Shown: in pieces, positions 39,241-63,812 of the stretch
Layout: each line of letters opens with the position of its first letter
How positions within the stretch are numbered: the stretch's first letter is position 1
NCBI GenBank assembly: GCA_945787655.1
Contig: CALZIJ010000002.1
Span: 44,576-108,575, forward strand
Direction: 5' to 3'
Source of the DNA: Nitrospiria bacterium
GTDB lineage: Bacteria; Nitrospirota; Nitrospiria; SBBL01; JAADHI01
Length of the DNA: 64,000 bases
Notes under the pieces: model-generated
Seen by the model: the letters and a program-made list of their open reading frames with translations, nothing else
Told to the model about the DNA's origin: nothing
The model's database searches: none
Translations under genes and position numbers: made by a program

Positions 39241-39741
39241 ATGGCAAAATTTGCAGTCAATTCCCATCGTTTCGACCCCTACCGGAATTTCAAGTTCAAA
39301 ATCAAGTGGGACGGTCAATATGTTGCGGGCCTTTCAAAATGCAGCGCGCTGAAAAAAACAACCGAATCGTCCGATTGGCGCGAAGGCGGCGATCCCAGCA
39401 CCGGCCGGAAGGTGCCAGGCAAGACCTCCTACGATGCCGTCAGTCTCGAAGCGGGCGTGACCCATGACACGACTTTTGAGGAATGGGCCAACCTGGTCAA
39501 TAATTTTCAGGGCGACTCAGCGATGTCCTTAAAAAATTTCCGAAAGGACGTCACGATTGACGTCTTCAATCTCGGTGGACAAAAGGTACTCTCTTATAAT
39601 GTCTTCCGGTGCTGGGTCTCGGAATATCAGGCTCTGCCGGAGCTTGACGCCAGCGGAAACGCCATCATGATCCAAACGATCAAACTTGAAAACGAGGGAT
39701 GGGAGCGCGACACCTCCGTCGCAGAACCAAGCGAAACCTAG
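39241..39741 (+). CDS. Tail tube protein (T4 gp19 / Afp1-5-like)
   Basis: DPYRNFKF, REGG, KVPG, W, RKDVTI, LDA..N. Confidence 0.95.
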   Translation: MAKFAVNSHRFDPYRNFKFKIKWDGQYVAGLSKCSALKKTTESSDWREGGDPSTGRKVPGKTSYDAVSLEAGVTHDTTFEEWANLVNNFQGDSAMSLKNFRKDVTIDVFNLGGQKVLSYNVFRCWVSEYQALPELDASGNAIMIQTIKLENEGWERDTSVAEPSET

Positions 39742-39770
39742 GCGGGACGGAGGCAGAGAGAGACCCGCCT
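39740..39770 (+). terminator. Hairpin directly after tube gene (partial terminator or stabiliser)
   Basis: AGGCGGG...CCCGCCT 7-bp stem followed by TATT. Confidence 0.4.
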
Positions 39771-39827
39771 TATTCCACCATGCCGGGTCTTGGGTTTTCC
39801 ATCTTTAAACGTTTCAGGAATGATCTT

Positions 39828-40724
39828 ATGGAAGAGCGAAGCTGTATCCTCCCGGGCGGCTGGGCGGATGCACAAGGGGAAATTCATAATAGGGTCGTCT
39901 TCTCCGCCCTCACAGGCCGGGAAGAGGCCCTGCTTGCCGATACCCAAGGAAACGGCCCGGCGAAAGTGACCGCCGTACTTAGCCGTTGCCTTAAGCAAAT
40001 CGGGTCAATCCGTCCCATCTCCGAATCCATCGCGCGCGAGCTCTTGATCGTCGACCGGGATTTTCTCTTGCTCAAGCTGCACGAGGCGACCTTTGGTTCG
40101 CGGGTGCAGGCGACCTTGCCTTGCCCCTGGCCCGACTGCGGCGAAAAAGTCGATATCGATTTTACCACCGAGGACATTCCCGTCAGCCCTTCGCAAGAGA
40201 AAGGCCCGCGGTTCACGGTCGTCCTCTCGCCAGAGGCCGCCTTCGTCAAAAATGGAAAGGCCCATCGGGAAGTCACTTTCCGGCTCCCGACCGGCGCGGA
40301 CCAGGAACGCCTCTCTTCCCGGCTTGCCGAGAACGAAGCCCAGGCCCTGAGCGAATTGCTCGCCCGCTGTATCCGGTCCATCGGCCCGCATGAGATGACA
40401 TCCGCCGAACAGATTGAGGCCCTTTCGCCCCTGGCCCGCATGGAGATTGAGCGGGAGATGCTTCGCATCGCCCCGAAGATCGAATTGAATATGGAAGTCA
40501 ACTGCCCCGAATGCGCGCGCTTGTTCACCGTGCCTTTTGATCTTCAGGATTTCTTTTTCGGAGAGATGCGCACCAGCCGGGATCTGCTCTACCGCGAGGT
40601 CCACTACCTCGCCTATCACTACCATTGGAGCGAAAAGGAAATCATGGAAATGCCGAAAGACCAGCGGCGCAACTACATTGAAGTCCTGGCCGATGAAATC
40701 GAAAGGCTGAACAATGCCGTCTGA
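39828..40724 (+). CDS. eCIS baseplate/tail assembly chaperone-like protein with two Cys-pair repeats and C-terminal DUF6760-like segment
   Basis: LPGG, LTGREE, DRDFLLL, CPWPDC, FRLPTGADQ, CPEC; LYREVHYLAYHYHWSE..I. Confidence 0.65.
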   Translation: MEERSCILPGGWADAQGEIHNRVVFSALTGREEALLADTQGNGPAKVTAVLSRCLKQIGSIRPISESIARELLIVDRDFLLLKLHEATFGSRVQATLPCPWPDCGEKVDIDFTTEDIPVSPSQEKGPRFTVVLSPEAAFVKNGKAHREVTFRLPTGADQERLSSRLAENEAQALSELLARCIRSIGPHEMTSAEQIEALSPLARMEIEREMLRIAPKIELNMEVNCPECARLFTVPFDLQDFFFGEMRTSRDLLYREVHYLAYHYHWSEKEIMEMPKDQRRNYIEVLADEIERLNNAV

Positions 40725-41895
40725 ACAAAGGCCGCAGCCACAAGCTTATCTTTACAAGGCGCTCGCCGACGGAGCAAAACCCTTTCGTTACCGAAGCGGT
40801 ATTCGCACTTTGCTGGGCCAGCCTGAAAACCCCGATACGCAGGTGTCGCATCCGCTCCCTCTCCCGCCCGCAGGCTTTCACTATTTGCGGCAGGCATCTT
40901 TTGACGAACCGGCACATGCACCGCGTCAGAGACCTGAAAAAGAGGATTTTCTTACCGAAATACCCGAAAGACACACCGCGCAAGGGCTTCAGGCACCCGA
41001 ATCCGCTCATGGCTTTGATGCCCCCCAGGCACAACAAAAGCCGGATACGCCGCGAAATACGCCCATTGCCCCGTATTCGTTTAAGTCAGCTCCTGGTTCA
41101 CAACACCTCCCGCACCGGGAAAGCGGGACCGAAGGGGAGACAGGCCCGATTCAAAAAACCATGGAAAGTGCCTCCACACAAATACAAATCGACATCCCCG
41201 GGTTCTCGGAAAAAGTACGCCGCTTTTCCGCGCTGACGCCCCGAAAAAAAGAGGACACACCACAGACACAGAAAGATGCGCCGGAGACGCGAACAACAGG
41301 AACCGCCCCCCTCACTCAAAACGTCCGCACGGAAATAATAGATCGATTAAACGTTCCTCAAACAGCGGTATCTGCTTCGCGTCAGCCACCACAAAAAACA
41401 CATCCTGCAATAGGGAAGATGCAGAATGTCCGCGAGACACAAAAAGAGGAAACAAAAACCATCAACCGCGCGACGACGCCTTCTTTGCATCATCTACACA
41501 AAGTCAACGCCGGGGACCAACAGGCCCTTCGAAAAATGGAGACCTGGACTGAAAATACGGTTTATAAAAATCAACTGCCTTCAAACACACCAAGGGAAAC
41601 GAACCCGCATGATCCACTTCCAATCCGGCGCACACAGCAAGCCGCGGAATCCCGGATTGAACAGCTCAGGCAGTCCCTTCAGACCTTGAAACAAAAAACA
41701 TCCACGCGTGAATCCGATGCTGAAAAACCGCCGGAAACACCACGGCATGAAACGGTCGATCACCATCGGCCTCCCGATCTCACGCCACAGCCAGTGGTGA
41801 TCGTCAAACGCGCCCCTGTCCGAAGGCAGTCGCCCGCCGCCTTTTGGGAACGCAACTATATGAGCCACCTTTTTCGTGTGAGGCCCTTGCGATGA
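40714..41895 (+). CDS. Low-complexity Pro/Gln/Thr-rich, probably disordered eCIS protein (tape-measure candidate)
   Basis: 393 aa, overlaps both neighbours, hydrophobic only at termini (FRYRSGIRTLLG; AFWERNY). Confidence 0.55.
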   Translation: MPSEQRPQPQAYLYKALADGAKPFRYRSGIRTLLGQPENPDTQVSHPLPLPPAGFHYLRQASFDEPAHAPRQRPEKEDFLTEIPERHTAQGLQAPESAHGFDAPQAQQKPDTPRNTPIAPYSFKSAPGSQHLPHRESGTEGETGPIQKTMESASTQIQIDIPGFSEKVRRFSALTPRKKEDTPQTQKDAPETRTTGTAPLTQNVRTEIIDRLNVPQTAVSASRQPPQKTHPAIGKMQNVRETQKEETKTINRATTPSLHHLHKVNAGDQQALRKMETWTENTVYKNQLPSNTPRETNPHDPLPIRRTQQAAESRIEQLRQSLQTLKQKTSTRESDAEKPPETPRHETVDHHRPPDLTPQPVVIVKRAPVRRQSPAAFWERNYMSHLFRVRPLR

Positions 41896-42734
41896 GTGCA
41901 TCGACCGCCATCGGCATGGTCAGTGAATCCCTGCGCAACCTGCTGGTCGGGGAAATGACGATCACACCCGCGCCGAATGTCACGGTGCTTGCCCCGGACG
42001 AATCGGGCGGCGGCAGCCGGCGCGTAAACCTTTTTTTATACAAGGCGCAGGAAAACCCGTCCTTGAAAAATTTGGACTGGCAACCCAAGACAGGCGACAG
42101 CAGTCAATTGGTCCCGCCGCCCCTGTCCTTGAACCTCTTTTATCTGATCACCCCCTATGCCCCGAACGACCCACAATCGGGCAACAGCGCGGCACATGAA
42201 ATCCTAGGCGAGGCCATGCGCGTTTTTTACGAGAACCCCATCGTCTCGCAGGAATATCTCGTCGAGGGACTGTCGGACGCACGGCATCAGATCAAAATCA
42301 TGCTCAATACCCTTGATCTCGAAGAGCTCAGCCGGGTCTGGAACACCTTCACGCAGCCCTTCCGCCTTTCTGTTTTATATGAAGTCTCCGTCGTGCAGAT
42401 CGACATGCTCACGGAAAGCGAGCGCGCGATGGCCGCGCGCGTACGGACCGTCGGCGTGCCGGATGTCCGGGCGCCCTACAAACCGCCCGTGGTCAGCTCC
42501 CTCAGTCCAGAAAGCGGCACGGCGGGCACGACCGTGACCTTCAGCGGGGAACATCTGGAAGGGTGGTCGGCCTATGTCACCCTCATGCGCAACCGCATCC
42601 TCGACGGCGTCGAAATCACGGGCGACAGTTTCGACGTGACCCTGCCGGGCGATCTCGATGCGGGATTTCATGAAATCCGCGTGGATGTCTCCCATCTTTT
42701 CCGGAAAACCTTTTTCTTCGAGGTCACGCCGTGA
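41892..42734 (+). CDS. DUF4255/Pvc16/Afp16-like cap protein with C-terminal IPT/TIG-like domain
   Basis: VNLFLY..ENP, PPLSLNLFYL, LSRVW, LSVLYEVSVV; PVVSSLSP.SG..G..VT..G..L. Confidence 0.88.
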   Translation: MSASTAIGMVSESLRNLLVGEMTITPAPNVTVLAPDESGGGSRRVNLFLYKAQENPSLKNLDWQPKTGDSSQLVPPPLSLNLFYLITPYAPNDPQSGNSAAHEILGEAMRVFYENPIVSQEYLVEGLSDARHQIKIMLNTLDLEELSRVWNTFTQPFRLSVLYEVSVVQIDMLTESERAMAARVRTVGVPDVRAPYKPPVVSSLSPESGTAGTTVTFSGEHLEGWSAYVTLMRNRILDGVEITGDSFDVTLPGDLDAGFHEIRVDVSHLFRKTFFFEVTP

Positions 42735-44968
42735 CGGTAAAGCGCTTGCAGAATTCCCCCGATACCGTGCCCGCCTACAGGGACAATCTCGATCAACTTC
42801 GGGATGCGCTGCGCCGGCTCGACCTCTTGATCCAGCGCCGGACAGTGGCATTCCGTGAGGCCGCGCCCGACCCCTTGCGCACGGATCTCACCCATGTCTA
42901 CATCTCGCACGAGGAAGTCGATCATTTGCTCAGATCCCCCGGCACCGTGAAGGTGGTTCACCCGGAGGGCCGGGGCATCGAGAAGGCCCTCGAATCACTG
43001 GGAAAGGAGATCCACGCCAAGGTCACGCAAAGCCTGCGGCAGGGGGTATTTCTCGCGTTGCCGCAATTGGCCCACATCTTTTCACTGTCCCCCTTTGAAT
43101 GCGACGTCCTCATCATCTGCCTCGCGCCTGAACTCGACCGGAAGTACGACAAACTTTATGCTTATCTCCAAGACGACATCACCCGCAAGAAACCCAGCGT
43201 GGATCTCGCACTGGATTTGCTTTGCGCGTCGGAGACCGCACGCTGGCAAGGCCGAAACTACTTCTCTTCACAAGCGCCGCTGTTCCGTACCGGACTTCTG
43301 CAATTCGTCGAGGACATGCAAAGCCCTTCAGGCTCGAGCGATTTGTCGCGGTTTTTAAAACTCGATCCACGGATCCTCAGTGCCTTGCTGGGTTCCAATC
43401 ACATAGATGCCGCATTATCAGATGTATCCAGACTGATTTTGCCGCAACCCGATCCGGAACCGGTTTTTATCGATCCCGCCATCCATAAAAACCTTCTGCG
43501 GTTCATGCAACGGCATTTATCGGATCAATCGAAGGACCGTAAAAAACTTGCTTTTCATTTTCACGGCCCCTACGGCGTGGGGAAAAAAGAATTGGCGGCC
43601 ACCCTCTGCGGCGCACTGAACATCCCGCTCCTGATCATCGACACCCCCCTGCTTTTGAAAGATTCCCGGGACATCGAAACCCCATTGCGCAATGCCTTCC
43701 GCGAGGGTTTGCTGCAACAGGCGGCACTGTTTCTGGAAGGCATCGACATCTTCAATACGGACAACACACCCCGTTTTTTTAAAACACTCCATCAGGCCAT
43801 CGCTCAATACGGCTGGCTGTGCTTTCTGGCCGGAGAAGCGGCCTGGACGCAACAACCGGGCCTGTTTCAAGACATGCTTTTTCAATCGGTGCACCTCCCG
43901 GTTCCGGCCGACCCCTTGCAACGGGCGGCCTGGGATTATCACTTGAGCGCGCTCGACGCCGCCAAGGCCGATCACGCCAAAGATTGGCCGGCGGCACTGG
44001 CAGGCCAATTCCGTCTCAGCCCCGGTCAAATGCGTGACGCCGTGCAATCCGCTCTCGCCCGGCGCGCCCTGGACGGCGGCGAATCCGGCATCACGCTCGG
44101 CGACCTGTTCTCCGCGTGCCGGGAACAGTCCAATCAAAAGCTGCATGAAATGGCCCGAAAAATCAACCCGCGCGCGGATTGGGGCGACATTATCCTGCCC
44201 GAATCCCATATCGGCCAGTTAAAGGAAATCTGCGCGCAAGTTAAACACCGGACGCGGGTCTTCGGCGATTGGGGCTTCGACCGGAAACTGTCCTACGGCA
44301 AGGGGCTGTCCGTGCTGTTCTCCGGCCCCCCCGGCACCGGCAAAACATTGGCGGCCGAAGTCATTGCCCATGCACTTGGACTCGATTGTTACAAAATCGA
44401 CCTCTCCGGCCTCGTCAGCAAGTACATCGGTGAAACGGAAAAAAACCTCGCCAAGGTGTTTCGGGAAGCCGAGACGAGCAACGCCATTTTATTTTTCGAC
44501 GAGGCGGACGCGCTGTTCGGAAAACGCACCGAGGTCAGCGACGCCCACGACCGCTACGCCAACATCGAAACAAGTTATCTGCTGCAAAAGATGGAAGAAT
44601 ACGAAGGCATTGTCATCCTCGCCACCAACCTGCGCGACAATATGGATGAAGCCTTCACCCGGCGCATCCGCTTCATTGTCGAGTTTCCTTTTCCGGACGC
44701 TGCGCACCGGCTGGCCATTTGGAAACGGCATTTTCCCAAGGAAGCACCGGTTGACGAAGCGATGGATTATGAATGGCTGTCCAAAAAGGTGCAGGTCGCG
44801 GGCGGCAATATTAAAAACATCGTGCTCAACGCCGCCTTTCTCGCCGCCGAAAACGGACAGGTCATTGGCATGGACCATCTCATTCAGGGCACGAGACGAG
44901 AATACGAAAAGATCGGCAAACTTTGGGATGACAACCGGCTGGATCCGGCGAAAGAGAAGGCCCGCTAA
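42731..44968 (+). CDS. AAA+ ATPase (Afp15/Pvc15-like)
   Basis: LAPELD..Y..LYAYLQDD N-domain; GPPGTGKT, SKYIGETEKNL, FFDEADALFGKR, DRYAN, DEAFTRR. Confidence 0.95.
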   Translation: MTVKRLQNSPDTVPAYRDNLDQLRDALRRLDLLIQRRTVAFREAAPDPLRTDLTHVYISHEEVDHLLRSPGTVKVVHPEGRGIEKALESLGKEIHAKVTQSLRQGVFLALPQLAHIFSLSPFECDVLIICLAPELDRKYDKLYAYLQDDITRKKPSVDLALDLLCASETARWQGRNYFSSQAPLFRTGLLQFVEDMQSPSGSSDLSRFLKLDPRILSALLGSNHIDAALSDVSRLILPQPDPEPVFIDPAIHKNLLRFMQRHLSDQSKDRKKLAFHFHGPYGVGKKELAATLCGALNIPLLIIDTPLLLKDSRDIETPLRNAFREGLLQQAALFLEGIDIFNTDNTPRFFKTLHQAIAQYGWLCFLAGEAAWTQQPGLFQDMLFQSVHLPVPADPLQRAAWDYHLSALDAAKADHAKDWPAALAGQFRLSPGQMRDAVQSALARRALDGGESGITLGDLFSACREQSNQKLHEMARKINPRADWGDIILPESHIGQLKEICAQVKHRTRVFGDWGFDRKLSYGKGLSVLFSGPPGTGKTLAAEVIAHALGLDCYKIDLSGLVSKYIGETEKNLAKVFREAETSNAILFFDEADALFGKRTEVSDAHDRYANIETSYLLQKMEEYEGIVILATNLRDNMDEAFTRRIRFIVEFPFPDAAHRLAIWKRHFPKEAPVDEAMDYEWLSKKVQVAGGNIKNIVLNAAFLAAENGQVIGMDHLIQGTRREYEKIGKLWDDNRLDPAKEKAR

Positions 44969-46245
44969 TGTTTGCAGTTGAACAGACAAAAAAGACCGGC
45001 AGTGTCCATCCCGGAAGTGTTTTGAAAAAGACGGGTACTCCGGCTTTTGGGAAATCGCAGCCGCTGCAAAGGGCGGTCGGGAACAGCTTACTTCAGTCAT
45101 CGGCAACAGGGAAGCATATTCAGCGGAAATGCGCCTGCGGCGGCAGTTGTTCAGCGTGTGGGGTAAAAGACGAGACAAAGCGGATACAAACCAAGTTGAG
45201 GGTCGGTCTGGCCCACGATGCCTATGAGCAGGAAGCCGACCGGGTCGCCGACTCGATCATGCGAATGCCTGAAACTTCGATTAAAAAGGAAACGCAAAGC
45301 CTCGCCTCATCGATACAGCGCATCGCAGACGGCGACGGCGGCGGATTCGACCCCGGCCCGGATTTTCAGGCGCAACAAAACGGCGGGCAGCCGCTTTCCG
45401 CTTCCACACGAAATTTTATGGAGCCCCGTTTCGGTACGGATTTCAGTCAGGTGCGCGTCCATACGGATTCGGGCGCGCAAGCTTCTGCGAATCAAATTCA
45501 GGCGCGCGCCTACACCTTTGGAAACCACATTACTCTGGGCAATGATGCGTCAGAAAACGATAAGCACTTGATGGCGCACGAACTGACACATGTCGTGCAA
45601 CAAGGGGGTGCGGAAGAGTCGGCGCAACGGACGCCTTTATCGCCTCGTATTCAGCGGGATCCGCCGCCTGCCGCCGATCCCTGTCCGGACGGCGTGAAAA
45701 CCATTACGGTCGATCTGGTCTCTTTGCGGGGTTCCAACCGGGACCCCAACCATGATCTCACTTTTGCCAATACGGTTTTTCGTTCTTGTTGTGTCCAGTT
45801 TCAATTAGGCACAGGCTTGACGGTTCATCCGGACGATTCCGACCGCTGGCTCGGGGGCGATACCGTGCTCGACCGTCTGACGGCCTGCGGCACAATCAGT
45901 ACCGAAGAACAAACCATGTACGACGAAGCCGCCGCCAATTACGGGATCACCAGTCCTTTTCGGGCTTTTTATGTGGCCTCGATGAATCCCGGCGCGCGAG
46001 GGGCCAGCAAGCCGCCTTATTGCGCCACAGGTGTTGCAGCACCCTACGTCAACACGGCGCGCATTTCGAACACGGCGCAAGACCGGTCATTGGCCCACGA
46101 GTTTGGACATATTTTGTTAAACAGCGGCGCGCACACCGGCATCGACAACCCGGCGGATACCGCAAATTTAATGATCCCGACCAACAATGCAACGGGTTCT
46201 ACCTTGGATGCGACGCAGTGCGCGACCATTTTCGGCAATGCCTAA
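44968..46245 (+). CDS. Putative eCIS cargo 1: DUF4157 + C-terminal HExxH metalloprotease-like domain
   Basis: MEPRFG.DFS.VRVH..ARAYT.GNHI..MAHELTHVVQQ; C-terminal LAHEFGHILLNSGAH..NLM. Confidence 0.85.
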   Translation: MFAVEQTKKTGSVHPGSVLKKTGTPAFGKSQPLQRAVGNSLLQSSATGKHIQRKCACGGSCSACGVKDETKRIQTKLRVGLAHDAYEQEADRVADSIMRMPETSIKKETQSLASSIQRIADGDGGGFDPGPDFQAQQNGGQPLSASTRNFMEPRFGTDFSQVRVHTDSGAQASANQIQARAYTFGNHITLGNDASENDKHLMAHELTHVVQQGGAEESAQRTPLSPRIQRDPPPAADPCPDGVKTITVDLVSLRGSNRDPNHDLTFANTVFRSCCVQFQLGTGLTVHPDDSDRWLGGDTVLDRLTACGTISTEEQTMYDEAAANYGITSPFRAFYVASMNPGARGASKPPYCATGVAAPYVNTARISNTAQDRSLAHEFGHILLNSGAHTGIDNPADTANLMIPTNNATGSTLDATQCATIFGNA

Positions 46246-46260
46246 GCCTGGATTTATAAA

Positions 46261-47544
46261 ATGACGGGAATCAAAACACAGCAACATCAATCAAATGACC
46301 GGGTCAAGGTTTCGTCGCAGCAAAAACCGCAGGCGGCACCCTTGCACATTAGCCCCGGTTTGATGTTGCAACGCAGCCTTGGAAACCAGCTCATGCCCAG
46401 ACACACGGCGAAGCCGATAATTCAAAGGCAATGCGCATGCGGCGGCGCTTGTTCCAATTGCGCATTGAAAAAAGACGTCCAACGAAAAGTGCAGGCCAAG
46501 CTCACGGTCGGCCCGGCGCATGACGCCTATGAGCAGGAAGCCGACCGCGTGGCCGATTCGATTATGCGGATGCCCGCAGCTTCGATTGAAACCGGGGATC
46601 AAGGCATCGCGCCCTCGATCCAGCGCGTCACAGGCAGCGACGGCGGCGGATTCGACCCCGGCCCGGATTTTCAGGCGCAACAAAACGGCGGCCAGCCGCT
46701 TTCGTCATCCATACGCAATTTTATGGAACCCCGCTTCGGCGCGGATTTCAGTGCGGTGCGCGTACACACGGGTGCGGATGCGGAACAGTCTGCGTCCCAA
46801 ATTCAGGCCCGGGCCTATACGCGCGGCAATCACATCACCTTGGGAAAGGGTGCCTCCGAAAAGGATCAACGCTTGATGGCCCATGAGTTGACACACGTGG
46901 TGCAGCAGGGCGGCGCGGAAAACGCAACGCAGCGGACGCCGATTGCGCCCCGCATCCAGCGCGATCCGCCGCAAAACCAATGTCCGGACGGCGTGAAAAC
47001 CGTCAATGTGGACCTCATCTCGTTACGCGGGTCAAGCCGCAACCCGCCCGCCGAACTCGATTTTGCCAACACGGTCTATGCGCCCTGCTGCGTGCAATTT
47101 CAAATGAGCCACGGGGTCAGCGTCATCGGGAGCTTGTCCGACACCTGGCTGGGCGGCGATACGGCGATGAGCCGGGGAACGACGCGCGGGGCGATCGATC
47201 CGGAACAGACCGCCGCCTATGACGGGGCAACTGCGACCTTTGGCCTGAGGGGTCGAATACGTGCATTTTATGTCGAAAGCCTGGTGGGCGGGTCGCGAGC
47301 CACGAGCTTTCCAAAAAACTGGGCCACGGGGACTGCCGCACCCTATGAAGGCATGGTCATTGTCACCAACAGTGCCGGCACGCGGACCCTGGCCCACGAA
47401 ATCGGCCACATCCTGCTCGACGCGGACGGGACGGTACACACCACCCATCCGGGCGGGACGGACAATATCATGCAGCCGACGAGCAGCGCCACCGGGTCCA
47501 CGGTGCACCAAACGCAATGTCCAACAATTTTTGGCAATGCATAA
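46261..47544 (+). CDS. Putative eCIS cargo 2: DUF4157 + C-terminal HExxH metalloprotease-like domain
   Basis: Same DUF4157 block; LAHEIGHILLDADGTVH..NIM. Confidence 0.85.
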   Translation: MTGIKTQQHQSNDRVKVSSQQKPQAAPLHISPGLMLQRSLGNQLMPRHTAKPIIQRQCACGGACSNCALKKDVQRKVQAKLTVGPAHDAYEQEADRVADSIMRMPAASIETGDQGIAPSIQRVTGSDGGGFDPGPDFQAQQNGGQPLSSSIRNFMEPRFGADFSAVRVHTGADAEQSASQIQARAYTRGNHITLGKGASEKDQRLMAHELTHVVQQGGAENATQRTPIAPRIQRDPPQNQCPDGVKTVNVDLISLRGSSRNPPAELDFANTVYAPCCVQFQMSHGVSVIGSLSDTWLGGDTAMSRGTTRGAIDPEQTAAYDGATATFGLRGRIRAFYVESLVGGSRATSFPKNWATGTAAPYEGMVIVTNSAGTRTLAHEIGHILLDADGTVHTTHPGGTDNIMQPTSSATGSTVHQTQCPTIFGNA

Positions 47545-47568: not shown

Positions 47569-48816
47569 ATGTTTGCATTACCTGAAAAAAAACAAAGCAC
47601 CGGCACCCTTGCACGCCCGGCCAAAAAGACACAGCGAAAAACCAATCCCGGGGGGGTGAATAGTCCTCAGATGTTTACGCGCCATAGGGGTAATCAGGCA
47701 ATAGGCACGGCATTCGGTAAACCAATACCAATTCAACGGCAATGCGCTTGCGGCGGGAGTTGTCCGACCTGCGCCTCGAAAATGGATAACCAGCAGGTGC
47801 AGCCAAAACTCACGGTCGGCCCGGCGCACGACATTTACGAACAAGAAGCCGACCGTGTGGCCGATGCCGTCATGCGCATGCCGTCGGCATCCACTGAAAC
47901 AGAGTCACAAAAGACAGGCCTATCCATCCAACGCATTGCATCGGACGATGGAGGCGGCTTCGACCCCGGTCCTGATTTCAAGACGGCGCAAGACGGCGGG
48001 CAGCCGCTTTCGGCCGCGACACGAACCTACATGGAGCCCCGCTTCGGTGTCGATTTCAGCACGGTGCGCGTGCACACCGGTGCGGATGCGGCGCGATCCG
48101 CGTCTCAGATTCAGGCCCGGGCCTATACGCACGGCAATCACATCACCCTGGGCCAAGGCGCCTCCGAAAACGACACGCACTTGATGGCCCACGAGTTGAC
48201 ACACGTCGTGCAACAAGGCGGCACGCAAGACGCGGCGCAGCGCACATCGATATCCCCGCGCATCCAGCGCGATCCGCCGCCCGCGCCCGACCCCTGTCCG
48301 GGCGGTGTGCGGCAGATTGATCTCTTCGCGGTAAATTTGCCCGGTTCGACCCGGACGATTTATGATGACCAGGCCAAGGCCGATGCGGTGCTGGCCCAGT
48401 GTTGCGCAAAAATCAACATCACCGGCGGGGAAAGCTGGGACACCAATTTGATGGATACCGATGCCCCTCACGGCGTGCTGAATCACAGCACGGCCACGGC
48501 GACCACGGAAGTGCAGGACATGACGGCGCACCGCCCCGGCGGCAATGTGTTGCACGCCTACTACGTACCCTCGATTTCGATTGGCTCGCGAGGCTCGTCG
48601 TTTTACGCGAGCCGTTACGGCGGGGCCTTTCCCGGCACGGCCAATGCGATTCAGGTCGCCAATTCCGCCGCAGTCGATACGATGGTGCACGAATTGGTGC
48701 ATGTTTTACTCGACGACGGCGGCCACCACGCCGACCCGGATAATCTCATGGCTTCCGGGAGCACGCGGAATGTGGGCGTGGACAATATGGATGCCGCGCA
48801 ATGCGCGGGGATTTAA
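47569..48816 (+). CDS. Putative eCIS cargo 3: DUF4157 + C-terminal HExxH metalloprotease-like domain
   Basis: Same DUF4157 block; VHELVHVLLDDGGHH..NLM. Confidence 0.85.
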   Translation: MFALPEKKQSTGTLARPAKKTQRKTNPGGVNSPQMFTRHRGNQAIGTAFGKPIPIQRQCACGGSCPTCASKMDNQQVQPKLTVGPAHDIYEQEADRVADAVMRMPSASTETESQKTGLSIQRIASDDGGGFDPGPDFKTAQDGGQPLSAATRTYMEPRFGVDFSTVRVHTGADAARSASQIQARAYTHGNHITLGQGASENDTHLMAHELTHVVQQGGTQDAAQRTSISPRIQRDPPPAPDPCPGGVRQIDLFAVNLPGSTRTIYDDQAKADAVLAQCCAKINITGGESWDTNLMDTDAPHGVLNHSTATATTEVQDMTAHRPGGNVLHAYYVPSISIGSRGSSFYASRYGGAFPGTANAIQVANSAAVDTMVHELVHVLLDDGGHHADPDNLMASGSTRNVGVDNMDAAQCAGI

Positions 48817-48842: not shown

Positions 48843-49574
48843 GTGCGTATTAGTTCTATTGATCAAAAAAAACCGGGTGCCGTGCAAGGGAAGACGCGTG
48901 GACTTTCTGCGTCTCCGGTTTGTTCCCGGAAAAGCACCGTACGGGATAAACATTCCCTCGACCGCAACCTGGGGAACCAGCGCGTGATGCGGATGACGGC
49001 GCAGCGCACACCGATATCGCCCCGCATTCAGCGGGATCCGCCGCCCGCGCCAAACCCCTGTCCGGACGGGATCAAAAAATTTGATGTCTTTGGGGTAAAT
49101 CTGCCGGGTTCAACCCGGAACCTTTATAACGATGAGGCCAAAGCCAATACAGTCTTGGCCCAATGTTGTGCAGGAATCAACATTGTCGGCGGGGAGTCCT
49201 GGGATACGACGCTATTGGACCTGCAAGCGCCGCATGGTTCATTGAACGAATTTAAGTCAATGGCCAGTCCCACGGCGGAGGAGACGACAATGCTGGCGCA
49301 CGCGCCGGGCGGGAGTGTGATTCATGCCTATTATGTGCCCAAGATGTCGGATCGCTCCCGGGGTGAAAATTTTCGTCCGAGCGTCAACCCCGCCGTACCG
49401 AAAGCAGTCGTGGTTTCGGATACCGCCGCCGTGGACACCTTCGTTCACGAACTGGGCCATATTCTTTTTGATGTGTCGGCTCATCATGCGAACCCCGATA
49501 ATCTCATGGCCTCCGGAAGCATTCGAAACGAAGGGGTCGACAATATTACGGCGACACAATGTGGACGGATTTAA
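48843..49574 (+). CDS. Putative eCIS cargo 4: short leader + HExxH metalloprotease-like domain, no DUF4157
   Basis: GTG start with AGGAAAGGGA RBS; LDRNLGNQ, AQRTPISPRIQRDPPP; VHELGHILFDVSAHH..NLM. Confidence 0.82.
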   Translation: MRISSIDQKKPGAVQGKTRGLSASPVCSRKSTVRDKHSLDRNLGNQRVMRMTAQRTPISPRIQRDPPPAPNPCPDGIKKFDVFGVNLPGSTRNLYNDEAKANTVLAQCCAGINIVGGESWDTTLLDLQAPHGSLNEFKSMASPTAEETTMLAHAPGGSVIHAYYVPKMSDRSRGENFRPSVNPAVPKAVVVSDTAAVDTFVHELGHILFDVSAHHANPDNLMASGSIRNEGVDNITATQCGRI

Positions 49575-49577
49575 GGA

Positions 49578-50483
49578 GTGCCTGTGAACGGATTTAAGAA
49601 AATCAATCAGCCCGCTTCCCGGCTTCAAAGAAGCCCGATGCATGCCGGGACTTCGGGAAAAACAAACGCGGGGATAAAACCGGGGGCCGCGTCTTCCGGA
49701 AAAGAACTCGGCCGGGCCTTGGGTAATCAAAAAATGGCTCAGCTTTTGACCCAAGGGAAAGCCGCGCCGCGCCGCATTCAGCGGCGCTGGGACGCAGCGA
49801 CAAGCGAGTGCGCGGGGCAGCCGACGGACAAGTGGGTCGAACGGATTGTCGTGCAGCAGGAAAGCCCACAAAGTACGACAATTCATTGGAGCGACGGGAC
49901 GACGGAATTGGGCCAATGTTCCTCAGGAAAAGGCCACTGCTGCGTCGATCCGGCCCATCCCGACGGCGTGGCCTGTACGGCGACGGGCTCCAAAAGGAAT
50001 GGCAGCAACTGCACGCCCATTACTTCTCGAAACGGGTACCTGGTGAAAAACCGGGACCTTGATCACAACGGGGTGCTGTGGTGGACGGAGTTCGTGCCGA
50101 GCCGGGGCATCGCCTTGCATGAGTACCGCCCGGTCGATGGCACGCCGCTGTCGCACGGTTGCGTGCGCCTCAATCACGACTTCGCGGTAAAAACCTTTTG
50201 CGGCGTGCGGCAAAACCAGACCTGGGTGCAGGTGCAGGGCTTCGCGCGGCCGATGTGCGACAACAGCAATTTACAAAGCGCCTGGCTGGGTGATTTCGCC
50301 ATGGGCGGCCGAAACCTGAGCGATTACGACGGGGACCGCGATACGCAGGCCTCCATCCGTGAAGCAAGACGGATGATCAATGCGGCCTTTGGGCGCACGG
50401 TCACCCCTGAGGAGATGCGGGGCTTCGACGCCTCCGACATCCCGCGCTGTAGCAGTACCGTTGCGCGCCCGGAGGGGGATTAA
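49578..50483 (+). CDS. Putative eCIS cargo 5: short leader + Cys-rich L,D-transpeptidase (YkuD)-fold domain
   Basis: LGRALGNQ, RRIQR; CSSG, TP, GIALH..SHGCVRL catalytic motif; no signal peptide. Confidence 0.82.
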   Translation: MPVNGFKKINQPASRLQRSPMHAGTSGKTNAGIKPGAASSGKELGRALGNQKMAQLLTQGKAAPRRIQRRWDAATSECAGQPTDKWVERIVVQQESPQSTTIHWSDGTTELGQCSSGKGHCCVDPAHPDGVACTATGSKRNGSNCTPITSRNGYLVKNRDLDHNGVLWWTEFVPSRGIALHEYRPVDGTPLSHGCVRLNHDFAVKTFCGVRQNQTWVQVQGFARPMCDNSNLQSAWLGDFAMGGRNLSDYDGDRDTQASIREARRMINAAFGRTVTPEEMRGFDASDIPRCSSTVARPEGD

Positions 50484-50523: not shown

Positions 50524-51249
50524 ATGTCGGGATTCAGTAACAAACCTAAAATTTTGCGGGGGGCCTTTGTGGAATACGGCTTGAGTATTCCGCCGCTCTT
50601 TGTCGTGTTTCAATTCAACCCCGTGCAGCTTTCGCGCAGCCGGACGCAGTCTTTCTCCGTGCCCGGCAGTGTGCAGCAGGCCGAGTACGAAGCGGCGCGC
50701 GAGGAAGGACGGTCGGCCCAGTACATTTCCTTGAGGGATTACCACCAGCGCTTTGATGACCTCTCCGAAATCCGCGACGCCCAGCAGGTGCGCATTCAGG
50801 AGGAATCCATCAACTTCGAAATCCGTTTGGACGCGACGGACGATTTGAACGACGGCGACACGATCACGGAGCAATTCGGCATCGCGCCGCAACTCTCGAC
50901 GCTTGAACTCATGGTGCATCCGAAGGAAGAGTCCCTTTTGGGACAAGCTTTGGGCGCGCTCCTCGGCTCGCCCGGCGGTTTTAGTTTCACGCGCAAGGAA
51001 AATCCGCCGATGATTCTCTTTATCTGGGGGCGGAAGCGGGTGCTGCCGGTGAACATCAACAGCCTGAGCATCACCGAGTCGGAATTCAGCACGGACCTGA
51101 ATCCGATCCGCGCGTCCGTTAACGTCAACCTGACTGTTATCGAAGGAAAAAACCTGGCCTATATGTACACCAAGGCGATGAAGGAAGTGATGTCGGTGCT
51201 GAATCTGGCGAATATCGCGGACATCGCCGATGTCGTCATTCCGGGGTAG
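50524..51249 (+). CDS. CIS tube-initiator-like protein (Afp7 N-part-like)
   Basis: FQFNP..LSR, E.I.F...LDATD, PP.ILFIWG..R.LPV.I.SLSITE..F...LNPIRA.V. Confidence 0.8.
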   Translation: MSGFSNKPKILRGAFVEYGLSIPPLFVVFQFNPVQLSRSRTQSFSVPGSVQQAEYEAAREEGRSAQYISLRDYHQRFDDLSEIRDAQQVRIQEESINFEIRLDATDDLNDGDTITEQFGIAPQLSTLELMVHPKEESLLGQALGALLGSPGGFSFTRKENPPMILFIWGRKRVLPVNINSLSITESEFSTDLNPIRASVNVNLTVIEGKNLAYMYTKAMKEVMSVLNLANIADIADVVIPG

Positions 51250-54671: not shown

Positions 54672-56149
54672 ATGGCGGAAATTAAAAAAACAAACGTGCA
54701 GTTGGCAGTCGATGTGATGGCACGCGATTACGACAGCCTGCTGCAATCCATGCGCGCGCTGATCCCCACCAAACTGCCTGAGTGGAAAGAATACGAAAAC
54801 GAAGCCGACTTCGGGAACGTGCTGCTGGAATTGTTCGCCCACATGGGCGACATCCTGAGTTATTATCAGGATCGCGCTGTCAACGAAAGTTTTTTAAGCA
54901 CGGCGCAAACGCGAAGAAGCATCATTCAACACCTGCGCCTCATCGGCTACAAACTGTCCACGGCGGCACCGGCCTCCGCCGCGCTCACCCTCACCGTGCC
55001 TGAGACCTGCAACGAGGTCATCACCCTTCAAAAAGGAGATGCCTTCGCCACAAAAAGCCAAGAAAACAGCCCCAGTATTCGCTTTGAATACACCCGCGAA
55101 GTGGCCATGGAAATCGATTGCAGTACCCTGAGTGCGAGCGGTGGAAAAAAGACCATCGAAAACATTCCCATCGAAGAAGGACGCTTGGTGGAAGAAGAAA
55201 TTCTGGGCGTCTCGGACGGCAGCACGAATCAACAGTACCCCTTGACCCATGCAGGTCTGATTTTACGGTCACTGGGGCAGGGGCAACAGATTCAGAAGGA
55301 CATCATTGTATTAACCGAACTGGGCGAGACCATCGAGGAATGGCGGCTTCAGGACAGCCTGGCCTTCAGCCGCGAGGGACAAAAGGACTACATCGTCGAG
55401 ATTGACGAAAACGATCAGGCCATGATCATCTTCGGCGACGGGGCCTTCGGCGCCATTCCACCATTGTGGATGCCCCCCAACTCACCTTGGCCGGGGCGCA
55501 GGTCACGAACCCCGCCGCGGCCACGGGCGGAGCGGAGCGGGAAACCATAGAAAACGCCGTCCGGCACGCGCCGAATGTTTTTCGTTCTTTGAAGCGCGCC
55601 GTAACGCAGGACGACTACGAGGCGCTCGCGCTGGAATTCACCGGCGTCGGCAAGGTCCGCGCCGAGGGGACGAACTGGAACACCGTGACCCTCTTCATCG
55701 CACCTCAGGGCGGCGGGCATGTCAGCGACGTGCTTGAGGCCAACCTGTTGGCCTATTTTGAAGACAAGCGCCCCGTCTCGACACTCATCGAAATTCAGGA
55801 CGTCGATTATGTGCAAATCTATGTCACGGCGGAAGTCGATGTGGAAAGCTATTATTCCGCCGATGAAATCAGGGAAAAGGTGCAGGATGCCGTTGAGGGC
55901 CTGCTCGCCTTCGATGCGGTCGACTTCGCGCAAATCCTTTATCTCAGCAAGTTTTACGAGGCCATCGAGGCCATCGACGGCGTCAAGGGCGTCAACATTT
56001 CGGAGTTCCGGCGATATGACGAAGCCGCCGCCACCATTCATGTGGATGGCAAAATCGTCCTGGGCTCCAATGAAATTCCTGAAATCCCCGCCGGGGAAAC
56101 GGACTACGCCAAGGGTGCGAAAGTGACCACTTCCGGAGGCAGCCAGTGA
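54672..56149 (+). pseudogene. Baseplate J / Afp11-like gene split by frameshift or deletion near 55460
   Basis: N-part: RDYDS, DFG..LLELFAHMGDILSYYQD, FGDG.FG.IP; C-part in another frame: VTNP.AATGG...E, RAVT..DY; junction GCCATTCCACCATTGTG. Confidence 0.75.
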
Positions 56150-61826: not shown

Positions 61827-62827
61827 CACGTAAACACCCAAAATCCAGTCCAATCATTTCACCATCGAAAACCACGCATCGGCCATTTTTAAGGGGCATT
61901 TACAAGGACTGCCTGACGGACCCGCAGGGAAAACACATCTGGGAAAGCGGGTGGCGGAACAACCGCGTGGTTCAACGGTGTCACCTGCTGTTGGCCGCGC
62001 TGATGAAACGCGAGCCGGGATTTTCCGGCATCCTGTATTGGGCCGTGGGGGAAGGGGCGGCATCCTGGGACCGCCTGATTCCCAGCCCGAATGGCGATGA
62101 GCAACAACTGGCCAACGAGGTTTCCCGCAAGACCCTGGCCGCCGGAGACATCCGCTATCTCGATGAACGCCATAATGTCGTCGAGACGCCGACGGCGCGC
62201 CTTCAAATCAGCGCGACCTTTGCACGGGAAGAACTCGGCGGGGAAGGCGTCCAAGTGCTCCGGGAATTCGGGCTTTTTGGGGGTGACGCGACGGGAACCC
62301 TCGACAGCGGGTGGATGATCGACTACATTATCCATCCCGGTATTCCCCTCTCGGCAGGCATGACCTTGACTCGTAATCTTCACCTGAGTTTTGGCTCCGG
62401 CACAGATTTGGGAGAAAGCATGGGCGGGTTCGGGGGCGCTTTGCCCGTCATCTCCATCGATGGCATCGGTGAAGAATTTTCAGGACTTCTTAACCGCACC
62501 GGGATTAATACGCTGAGCAATTTGGTCGCCATCGATCCACTTCAATCCATTGAAAACATTCCCGGTGTCAAACTCCGGGAGTTTCGCGCGAAGGCCCGCA
62601 TGGTGTTGAACCTGAACGCGGATCTCCTGGCCTTCGTCCCCCTTTCAGAACGCAACATCAGTGACTTGTTAAAAGCTGACCCCCAGACTCTAGCAGGGGA
62701 AGTCGGGTCACCTTTGGTGACAGACAGCCACATTATCCAAATGCAAGAGCAATTGGCCATTTTACAGGTTGCCCTAGACGATACCACCTTACGGGAGATT
62801 TCCTTGGGTGATTTACTCAACACATGA
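61823..62827 (+). CDS. Paralog of 58651 gene fused to helix-hairpin-helix-like C-terminal domain
   Basis: GIYKD.L.D..G, GWRNN, AVGEG, LREFGLFG; IDGIG..F...L...GI.T...L. Confidence 0.65.
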   Translation: MTRKHPKSSPIISPSKTTHRPFLRGIYKDCLTDPQGKHIWESGWRNNRVVQRCHLLLAALMKREPGFSGILYWAVGEGAASWDRLIPSPNGDEQQLANEVSRKTLAAGDIRYLDERHNVVETPTARLQISATFAREELGGEGVQVLREFGLFGGDATGTLDSGWMIDYIIHPGIPLSAGMTLTRNLHLSFGSGTDLGESMGGFGGALPVISIDGIGEEFSGLLNRTGINTLSNLVAIDPLQSIENIPGVKLREFRAKARMVLNLNADLLAFVPLSERNISDLLKADPQTLAGEVGSPLVTDSHIIQMQEQLAILQVALDDTTLREISLGDLLNT

Positions 62828-63812
62828 CCTTACCGCCCCTTACGCCAGAAAAAACCACAACCGTCCCGGCATATCCAATGGGGGAAATTTTTTAAAACTT
62901 AAAACACCTCAACACCCTGATCCACCCGCAAACACCCTACAACGGGCCTTGGGAAATGCGGCCATTCAGCCGTTGCTTCAAACCGTCTCCGTAAGAACAA
63001 AATGGAAACAACAACGCGATGTTGATCAACACGAGCGAGATGCGGAATACACCGCCAATCATGTCATGCGCATAATCAACGATTCTCTGTCAGCCATTTC
63101 AAAAAATACATCAGAAATCCCCCAAGAAGATGTCCTTAATGAGGGAAACGGCCGTTTACAACACACTCAGCGGCCAGGCGCTTGCTCCTCATCTGCGCAC
63201 TTTTTTCGAGCCGCGCTTCGGGCGGGATTTCAGTGGCGTCCGGATTCACAATGATAACCCGGCCGTGGAAGCAGCGCGGGGGGTAAACGCCAAGGCATTC
63301 ACATTGGGTAATCATGTGGCCTTCGGTGAATGGGAGTATGCACCGGAGACGCACACCGGCCGCCTATTATTCCTGAAAATTATCTGGACCCAGACCATGA
63401 TGAGACTGAGGATGAAGACCCCTGCGATGATCCCAACATTAATTTCCATAAATGTGAGGAATTAGAAAATCGTGGATATGAAAACAGGGGTGTGGAAGAC
63501 TTGCTTGAAGAAGAAGTCCAGACCAAACCGGTGCACGCCCCGTATCAAGATAAAACAATTTGGAGCTGGACCAGCTCAGGCCGACAACAAATCCGGCAGG
63601 ATATTTTATGCAGCCGAACCGGCTTTTTGACAGAGATCGAACGGTGCCGCACCGTTCACACCACCTATAACCCAAAACGAAAGAACAGCAAAGACCCGGT
63701 GAAAAACACTCAAATTACAATTGTCTGCTGTCCATGCTGTGTGCCAAATCCAGTGACCGACACTTGGTCATTGCCTAATCTCGATCCGGTGTATTGTAAG
63801 GTTAATAATTAA
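62808..63812 (+). pseudogene. Decayed DUF4157 cargo gene (two frame changes, HELTH lost) with Cys-rich C-terminal domain
   Basis: LQRALGN..D.HERDA..AN.VMR in one frame; FFEPRFGRDFSGVRIH..AFTLGNH..TGRLL in a second; acidic/Cys-rich domain (CCPCC) in a third. Confidence 0.7.

Follow-up and report, generated by a model that had tools for sequence, protein, structure and literature searches.

Two cargo genes without DUF4157 in a Nitrospiria contractile injection locus, each probably a loading leader joined to a toxin domain

Introduction

What determines cargo choice in extracellular contractile injection systems (eCIS) is still an open question, and loading leaders are said to share disorder rather than sequence (10.64898/2026.05.27.728243; PMC9054023). 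In AlgoCIS, the disordered N-terminal domain (NTD) of the cargo and the ATPase Alg15 are both required for loading, and cargo from which DUF4157 had been deleted was still detected in particles (10.64898/2026.05.27.728243). The effectors Pnf and Pdp1 of the Photorhabdus virulence cassette (PVC) load via N-terminal signals that require Pvc15 (PMC9054023). DUF4157, the earlier name of PF13699 (eCIS_core), occurs in only 36% of known toxins, and the studies concerned used physico-chemical N-terminal scores, with no sequence motif in their available text (PMC8213781, PMC11297309). Here we analyze a 64,000-nucleotide stretch (the window) from the draft genome, in 168 contigs, of a Nitrospiria bacterium (assembly GCA_945787655.1, contig CALZIJ010000002.1), in which an eCIS operon holds five genes, cargo 1–5, in the slot between an AAA+ ATPase and a tube initiator. 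The last two, cargo 4 and cargo 5, lack DUF4157, and we propose that they are probably working payload genes, each with nothing more than a loading leader at the N-terminus and a toxin domain behind it.

The locus resembles AlgoCIS in that its cargo genes lie inside the operon and begin with a disordered N-terminus, as do those of Cgo1 and Cgo2, and in that one AlgoCIS cargo has a metalloprotease-like C-terminal domain (PMC8894135; 10.64898/2026.05.27.728243); both loci encode an AAA+ ATPase, needed for AlgoCIS loading, beside the operon cargo (10.64898/2026.05.27.728243). It differs in that Cgo1 and Cgo2 contain DUF4157, which was deleted by engineering, whereas the deletion described here is natural and recurs in several toxin families. 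Moreover, the available text of the AlgoCIS preprint describes loading sequences as not conserved between systems, whereas we find a position-fixed motif in 2,412 clusters (10.64898/2026.05.27.728243). The finding of that preprint that loading can do without DUF4157 anticipates part of the biological claim. PVC effectors are likewise free of DUF4157 and have an N-terminal leader of ~50 residues that depends on the AAA ATPase of the operon, but conserved residues are rare in it and single alanine changes are reported to be without effect, in contrast to the invariant G-N and clear consensus of the leader type seen in cargo 4 and cargo 5 (PMC9054023). With the DUF4157-fused eCIS toxins (PMC8213781, PMC11297309), of which cargo 1–3 are ordinary members, the two genes share operon position and toxin families, but they have no match to the Pfam family by which those toxins are defined. 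The Streptomyces effector Sle1, which comes with a separate small DUF4157 protein, also lacks DUF4157 and lies beside DUF4157 genes, with a DUF4157 role in trans proposed for it, but it has a long tape-measure-like coiled coil instead of a short GN leader and belongs to a cytoplasmic system (10.1101/2025.11.06.686954). Apart from the engineered AlgoCIS deletions, the genes studied here offer evidence from nature that the DUF4157 cassette is optional. In type VI effectors, markers such as MIX are short N-terminal motifs, conserved on otherwise unrelated toxins and usable as search handles; they concern another secretion machine and another motif and serve here as an analogy only.

Results

Architecture of cargo 4 and cargo 5

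Cargo 1–3 are built in one order: a basic R-x-x-G-N leader; IQR and then CACGGxCxxC (the Cys motif); the helix hQxKLxVGxAHDxYEQEADRVAD (the EQEAD helix) and then SIQR; DUF4157; the linker AQRTPxxPRIQRDPP; and a toxin domain of ~190 residues. All three match PF13699 at more than 22 bits and contain HExxH, the two marks of DUF4157 (eCIS_core) proteins. In cargo 4, HSLDRNLGNQRVMRMT is directly joined to AQRTPISPRIQRDPPPAPNPCPDG, and its leader segment LDRNLGNQRVMRMT runs straight into AQRTPISPRIQRDPPP and then into a toxin domain paralogous to that of cargo 3. The distance from GN to AQR is ~182 residues in cargo 3 and 7 in cargo 4; therefore ~175 residues are absent, comprising the Cys motif, the EQEAD helix and all of DUF4157, in agreement with the 170–180 residues claimed in an earlier reading made from the sequence alone. 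DNA similarity between the two genes starts abruptly at the AQRT codons, and from this junction on they share 64% amino-acid identity. The N-terminal part of cargo 5 reads KELGRALGNQKMAQLLTQGKAAPRRIQRRWD; here GRALGNQKMAQLL is followed by RRIQR and then by a YkuD-like domain unrelated to the cargo 4 toxin, which identifies the unrelated enzyme that the sequence-only reading had placed behind a GN leader and RRIQR. Both frames are open to their stop codons, as that reading had also stated. Cargo 4 matches no Pfam family, PF13699 included, while the only Pfam match of cargo 5, likewise without PF13699, is YkuD (PF03734, 24.3 bits against a cut-off of 23.4); an NCBIfam scan of the cargo proteins gave no match above any cut-off. 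The leader motifs of the cargo genes were read by eye and with regular expressions, and a five-way protein alignment misplaced the leaders of cargo 4 and cargo 5.

GTG 48843 is a plausible start of cargo 4, with a Shine-Dalgarno-like run (AGGAAAGGGA) 8 nt upstream and with the leader motif at the usual N-terminal distance of the family; an in-frame ATG at 48801 would give a 257-aa form. For cargo 5 the probable start is GTG 49584, preceded at 5 nt by AAGGAG. From these starts the leaders are 64 and 67 residues long in cargo 4 and cargo 5, respectively, with isoelectric points of ~12, 15/3 and 13/1 basic to acidic residues (K+R/D+E) and a grand average of hydropathy of −0.8 to −0.9. AlphaFold2 models give a predicted local distance difference test score (pLDDT) of ~50 over residues 1–85 and 97–98 from residue 88 on in the 257-aa form of cargo 4, and ~50 over residues 1–67 and 91–98 over the toxin in cargo 5. 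Both proteins thus have, by prediction, the disordered hydrophilic N-terminal 50–70 residues that, with a gene position in or beside the operon, characterize eCIS leaders.

The modeled toxin domain of cargo 4 has fragilysin and the adamalysins as its best Foldseek matches (E 2.3e-7; template-modeling (TM) score up to 0.58 on the target), and H216, E217, H220 and H228 are invariant, and M236 nearly so, in 57 sequences. We take it to be a metzincin-like zinc metallopeptidase, as predicted from HExxH, a further His, a downstream Met and the modeled fold. The classical metzincin consensus is HExxHxxGxxH, from which cargo 4 differs in its spacing to the third His (7 residues). The cargo 5 toxin finds L,D-transpeptidases (Foldseek E 1.6e-4, at a low TM score of 0.27–0.41), and H179, S190, H191, G192, C193 and R195 are invariant in 44 sequences. 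It has the YkuD fold by its PF03734 score above the cut-off together with the features by which the YkuD motif is defined, the catalytic His and [S/T]HGC. This domain is under strong purifying selection: it is 90% identical to its ortholog in a congener (genome G315, same genus), with a ratio of nonsynonymous to synonymous substitution rates (dN/dS) of 0.05. The leaders of these two orthologs share only 32% identity, with GN and IQR still kept.

By our own profile hidden Markov model (HMM) for DUF4157, the domain is present in 38 of the 62 non-self homologs of cargo 4 and absent from 24, and the corresponding numbers for the 92 homologs of cargo 5 are 63 and 29. The GN leader is found in 9 of these 24 and in 14 of these 29 DUF4157-less proteins, and GN is followed by IQR in 8 of the 10 closest DUF4157-less homologs of cargo 5 (P0065–P0073, P0075). 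The build of cargo 4 recurs exactly in protein P0003, which another assembly carries on a 174-kb contig. In the 10 DUF4157-less homologs that were aligned, G and N are the only invariant residues of the leader (10/10). The same slot in G315 holds four genes, two with DUF4157 and two without it but with a GN leader; of the latter, one (244 aa) has LQRAIGN, FIQR and a different HELGH domain, and the other, fourth in the slot, is a YkuD gene (292 aa). The slot in genome G144 has one DUF4157-less gene, with LERSLGNS and then a Cys motif. These data support the view that both toxin families exist elsewhere as DUF4157 fusions, of which cargo 4 and cargo 5 are intact and conserved counterparts without the domain.

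Specificity of the leader motif and its link to eCIS genomes

A leader HMM of 30 columns, built from 43 leaders all taken from other assemblies, was run against the 10,340 stop-to-stop open reading frames (ORFs) of at least 80 aa in the genome of the window. Cargo 4, the frameshifted sixth cargo gene, cargo 5 and cargo 2 took ranks 1 to 4, followed by an orphan ORF on another contig at rank 5, cargo 1 at rank 6 and cargo 3 at rank 12, so that all six cargo genes of the genome and an orphan seventh were picked out. The toxin part of the orphan has a sub-threshold Aspzincin_M35 match. In its five closest orthologs, from five other assemblies, the GN leader and an I/V-QRQE junction are always present, while PF13699 is found in 4 of its 10 homologs, with the DUF4157 fusions among the more distant relatives. 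The database gene call for the orphan (P0307) begins inside the leader.

In a sample of 401 genomes of the phylum, 40 had an ATPase match at E ≤ 1e-60, a list that also takes in short orphan ATPases, and 18 had a leader match at E ≤ 0.01. With the genome of the window left out, a leader match was present in 14 of the 39 genomes with the ATPase versus 3 of the 361 without it, ratios that overstate the significance because the genomes are related and not independent. The three ATPase-less matches, and weak ones in G303 and on contig C107 of G315, are short or odd-composition frames with a non-genic look. In 10 of the 13 genomes with credible matches, one contig carries both the ATPase and a leader match no more than 25 kb from it. 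The motif is therefore enriched in eCIS genomes over controls, as the sequence-only reading had predicted, and the part of its proposed loading signal that stands is the R-x-x-G-N leader, which is real and eCIS-linked; the other part, RIQR, is not a general component.

The leader motif is ancient and occurs well beyond this phylum. In 80 loci from many phyla, found via the DUF4157 pattern AHEL[TA]H[VT][VL]Q, it scored at least 10 bits in 14 of 136 DUF4157 ORFs and in 2 of 2,666 other ORFs, one of the two apparently spurious, and a reversed-sequence control gave none among 2,802 ORFs. The carriers include bacteria (Nitrospirota, Acidobacteriota, Verrucomicrobiota, Chloroflexota, Desulfobacter, Nitrosomonas and Alphaproteobacteria) and archaea (Methanosarcina, Methanosarcinales and ANME-1), and the wider consensus is hxLQRThGNQAVQRLh, of which the GN motif of this locus is the local form. 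A 36-column profile (A7), searched against representatives of 50%-identity clusters of 1.84 billion proteins, matched 2,412 representatives at E ≤ 0.001, 18 of them at E ≤ 1e-10. Among the best 150 of the 2,412, the first profile column falls at residue 20–40 in 132, with a median of 30; by our own HMM 91 of the 150 carry DUF4157, 28 are short, and 31 are without DUF4157 despite at least 110 residues after the leader, some of which may be truncated gene calls. Pfam finds PF13699 in none of these 31, YkuD in one and no family in 30. Together with the orphan gene on another contig, they bear out the warning of the sequence-only reading that searches relying on DUF4157 miss such genes. A text search, with figures and supplements such as the PVC logo and the AlgoCIS NTD alignment outside it, did not find the GN leader motif itself in print, and the conserved, position-fixed GN leader appears to be new as a DUF4157-independent marker.

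The GN leader motif is present at least twice, in tandem, in 14 of the best 150 representatives (P0165, P0213, P0232, P0258, P0292 and others).

RIQR and other h-Q-R elements

In all nine cargo genes of this genome and G315, which represent four toxin types with or without DUF4157, [RF]IQR stands immediately before the toxin domain. Among the 14 DUF4157-less, GN-bearing homologs of cargo 5, IQR is found in 8, I/V-M-R in 5 and neither in 1. Judged from these comparisons and those for cargo 4 given below, RIQR is conserved in this lineage only and not generally. Across 129 diverse DUF4157 proteins, [LIVMF]QR was observed 215 times in the N-terminal regions versus 20.8 ± 4.6 in shuffled sequences, an approximately tenfold enrichment, and 108 of the 129 have at least one copy; the leader motif itself begins with LQR. 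Since h-Q-R is enriched to this extent and recurs at module borders, we interpret it as a short, repeated linear element marking the limits of modules, which may serve in docking, in processing or in neither.

An h-Q-R enrichment within 40 residues after DUF4157 (64 observed versus 4.8 shuffled) was set aside: 47 of these triplets fall no more than 8 residues from where the domain ends and may be variants of its own HxxxHVVQQ ending.

Discussion

Proposed mechanism and points against it

Cargo 4 and cargo 5 share a strongly basic, predicted-disordered leader of ~65 residues in which h-x-R-x-h-G-N-Q keeps a fixed spacing to the N-terminus and to which, in this lineage, an h-Q-R at the toxin border also belongs. 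This leader would be the part recognized for loading. By analogy with PVC and AlgoCIS, we propose that its most likely reader is the AAA+ ATPase encoded directly upstream, whose role would be to unfold the cargo and feed it into the lumen of the tube; a complex prediction for the whole ATPase with residues 15–90 of cargo 4, both given as alignments, scored 0.01 (mark, 0.32), which speaks neither for nor against such binding. An accessory cassette would consist of the Cys motif, the EQEAD helix and DUF4157, and cargo 4 would have lost it, or never gained it, via recombination at the linker. Specifically, since cargo 4 retains the linker that follows DUF4157 in cargo 1–3, its 3' half would derive from a DUF4157-type gene, and recombination may have placed a metzincin domain of the cargo 3 type behind a leader typical of DUF4157-less cargo. 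The leader similarity scores of cargo 4 point the same way (P0003, 76; G315 YkuD gene, 63; P0069, 60; cargo 1–3, 24–41), and we tentatively suggest that the gene arose by cassette exchange at this linker.

Several observations weigh against the proposal. The AlgoCIS construct that loaded foreign reporters comprised the NTD plus DUF4157 (10.64898/2026.05.27.728243). GN is absent from 15 of the 24 DUF4157-less homologs of cargo 4, several of which begin with V or come from contigs of 1–2 kb, and from 15 of the 29 of cargo 5; many of the GN-less proteins in both sets are short or on small contigs. Of the nine GN-bearing, DUF4157-less homologs of cargo 4, two have any h-Q-R after GN and seven lack RIQR. 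The similarity scores behind the mosaic origin of cargo 4 are low. In the diverse loci, 122 of the 136 DUF4157 ORFs have no GN leader, often with an LLQRxCxCGG N-terminus instead, and the GN motif is one leader type among several. Finally, the Baseplate_J-like gene (54672-56149) consists of two overlapping ORFs, 54672-55550 and 55466-56149, and when compared with the single 518-aa ORF of G315 has lost ~26 codons, with a frame shift near 55460, and the sixth DUF4157 gene, at the far end of the operon, is also frameshifted; the machine may therefore be defective, or the assembly wrong there.

Alternative explanations

It is conceivable, and in our view rather unlikely, that DUF4157 is needed in trans, with the modules of cargo 1–3 serving cargo 4 and cargo 5 as a spike/baseplate adaptor, as a chaperone or as a zinc protease cutting at h-Q-R, and with the retained RIQR as a docking or processing site. 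Such a role would account for the fact that, across the three related cargo slots, leader genes without DUF4157 always adjoin DUF4157 genes, and it is consistent with the [RF]IQR before each of the nine toxins whatever their type, with the abundance of h-Q-R in the N-terminal regions of the 129 DUF4157 proteins and with the HExxH kept in cargo 1–3. In Streptomyces, the binding partners of a DUF4157 protein include spike-complex proteins and an effector that lacks the domain (10.1101/2025.11.06.686954), and a chaperone role in cis or in trans has been proposed (PMC11297309). However, the orphan leader gene on contig C4 has no DUF4157 neighbor within the 12 kb examined, distant DUF4157-less homologs have no h-Q-R junction, and the DUF4157-deleted AlgoCIS cargo was detected in particles from a double-knockout background in which the other cargo was absent (10.64898/2026.05.27.728243); a report of cleavage by DUF4157 was not found in the available text of the sources. 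We consider it quite improbable that cargo 4 and cargo 5 are never loaded, being either remnants left by the shuffling of cassettes as the locus decays or toxins released by lysis or another route, with a leader kept by descent. The strong purifying selection on the cargo 5 toxin argues against this, as do the occurrence of the same architectures in G315, where the baseplate gene is whole, the invariance of G and N while the rest of the leader diverges, and the fixed position of the motif in most of the best representatives, although the disrupted baseplate gene and frameshifted sixth gene of this assembly would be expected of a locus in decay, and no immunity-like genes lie between the cargo genes.

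That the DUF4157-less cargo 4 is an assembly artifact, produced by a collapse of tandem paralogs over AQRTPxxPRIQRDPP, has in its favor the draft state of the genome, the near identity of cargo 1–4 over ~50 nt at the junction and the suspicious deletion in the baseplate gene of the same locus. We judge it highly improbable: the exact 257-aa cargo 4 protein is recorded on two contigs, P0003 shows the cargo 4 build in another assembly, the leader of cargo 4 is unique and the gene follows the stop codon of cargo 3 with its own ribosome-binding site, and the genome has no spare DUF4157 copy, all five of its PF13699 matches being accounted for.

Significance

Beyond the reading of cargo 4 and cargo 5 as a leader plus a toxin, we hold it possible, though short of likely, that the motif h-x-L-Q-R-T-h-G-N-Q-A-V-x-R-L-h, ~30 residues from the N-terminus, is an address tag shared by a large class of contractile injection systems of bacteria and archaea. 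If so, the motif and not DUF4157 would define what gets loaded, which would allow a DUF4157-independent catalog of payloads, and the repeated h-Q-R elements would be recognition or processing sites. That a position-fixed motif persists in four unrelated toxin families where the cargo naturally lacks DUF4157 yields a hypothesis at the level of residues (G-N and h-Q-R), and the motif is a search handle for hidden payloads that found the orphan gene in its own genome. The practical gain would be a better annotation of eCIS effectors and a defined minimal leader for reporter loading studies.

Operon setting and additional observations

By Pfam gene calls the eCIS operon occupies 36.9–64 kb of the window, and its Afp/PVC-like gene set comprises sheath, tube, gp25-like protein, Baseplate_J wedge (its gene split in this assembly), spike, Pvc16-type terminator and AAA+ ATPase (Table 1). 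The stop codon of the ATPase gene overlaps the start of cargo 1, and genes for the GPD hub, spike, gp25 and Baseplate_J lie downstream of the cargo genes. Genes for a phage head, replication or the membrane complex of a type VI secretion system were not seen among the ORFs scanned in 30–64 kb, where no systematic search was made.

Table 1. Features of the eCIS operon and related loci; positions refer to the window unless a contig or locus is named.
Feature	Position	Strand	Basis or remark
Sheath gene	37271-39205		Pfam
gp19-type tube gene	39241-39741		Pfam
T4_baseplate-like protein gene	39699-40724		Pfam
Pvc16_N terminator gene	41844-42734		Pfam
Afp15/Pvc15-like AAA+ ATPase with N-terminal winged-helix domain	42731..44968	+	Pfam: winged-helix domain variant E 2.6e-58, AAA E 9.6e-36
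Cargo 1: LQRAVGNS leader, Cys motif, EQEAD helix, DUF4157, RIQR junction, metzincin-like toxin	44968..46245	+	PF13699 E 2.6e-29
Cargo 2, architecture as cargo 1	46261..47544	+	PF13699 E 3.6e-31
Cargo 3, architecture as cargo 1; toxin paralogous to that of cargo 4	47569..48816	+	PF13699 E 6.9e-28
Cargo 4, 243 aa from GTG, no DUF4157	48843..49574	+	Same build in P0003
LDRNLGNQ, core of cargo 4 leader	48957..48980	+	Read from sequence
Junction AQRTPISPRIQRDPPP, probable recombination point; same linker after DUF4157 in cargo 1-3	48999..49046	+	DNA homology with cargo 3 begins here
Cargo 4 toxin domain, metzincin-like (predicted), HELGH..H..NLM	49062..49571	+	AlphaFold2, Foldseek, conserved residues
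Cargo 5, 299 aa, no DUF4157; alternative GTG 49578	49584..50483	+	Pfam; database gene call P0064, 299 aa
RALGNQ, core of cargo 5 leader	49713..49730	+	Read from sequence
RRIQR bordering cargo 5 toxin fold	49770..49784	+	AlphaFold2 pLDDT rises from ~50 to 94 just after
Cargo 5 toxin domain, L,D-transpeptidase (YkuD)-like	49785..50480	+	PF03734, Foldseek, conserved residues
CIS_tube-like tube initiator, 3' end of cargo slot	50524..51249	+	PF19266; same place in related loci
Sixth DUF4157 gene, LQRALGNA leader, broken into three overlapping frames	62808..63812	+	Leader HMM rank 2
Orphan leader gene, 374 aa; LQRMIGN, later ILQRQE	Contig C4, L056:5417-6541		Among FtsK, LolA and FliK-like genes
In-frame TGA loci, outside the window	L137 (G374:C75), L141 (G346:C33), L157 (G308:C31), L164 (G308:C11), L161 (G306:C53)		

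The G+C content climbs from ~0.45–0.50 to 0.55–0.59 near 38 kb, at the start of the eCIS operon, a step that suggests horizontal acquisition of the operon.

At five loci in four other genomes of the phylum (Table 1), an ORF of ~100 aa with the GN leader and the EQEAD helix stops at an in-frame TGA after ..hxhKP[GT], and past this TGA the frame goes on as PF[AS]KGxSCG.. into a DUF4157 domain. The DNA directly 3' of the TGA is highly conserved, and a hairpin is predicted ~16 nt downstream, with 14 pairs, 1 of them compensatory. SelB (PF09107, E ~1e-19) and a tRNA-Sec above the Rfam cut-off are present in all four genomes, and neither is found in the genome of the window. An Rfam scan of the five loci gave no selenocysteine insertion sequence (SECIS) family and only two weak unrelated matches, and a literature text search, with figures and supplements outside it, found no paper that pairs selenocysteine with DUF4157. 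These loci probably represent a family of selenocysteine-containing eCIS cargo.

A further DUF4157 protein of the genome of the window (396 aa, contig C31, L005:700-3037, minus strand) has no GN leader and is encoded beside a short stand-alone AAA ATPase, outside any eCIS operon. This short type of ATPase recurs in other genomes of the phylum.

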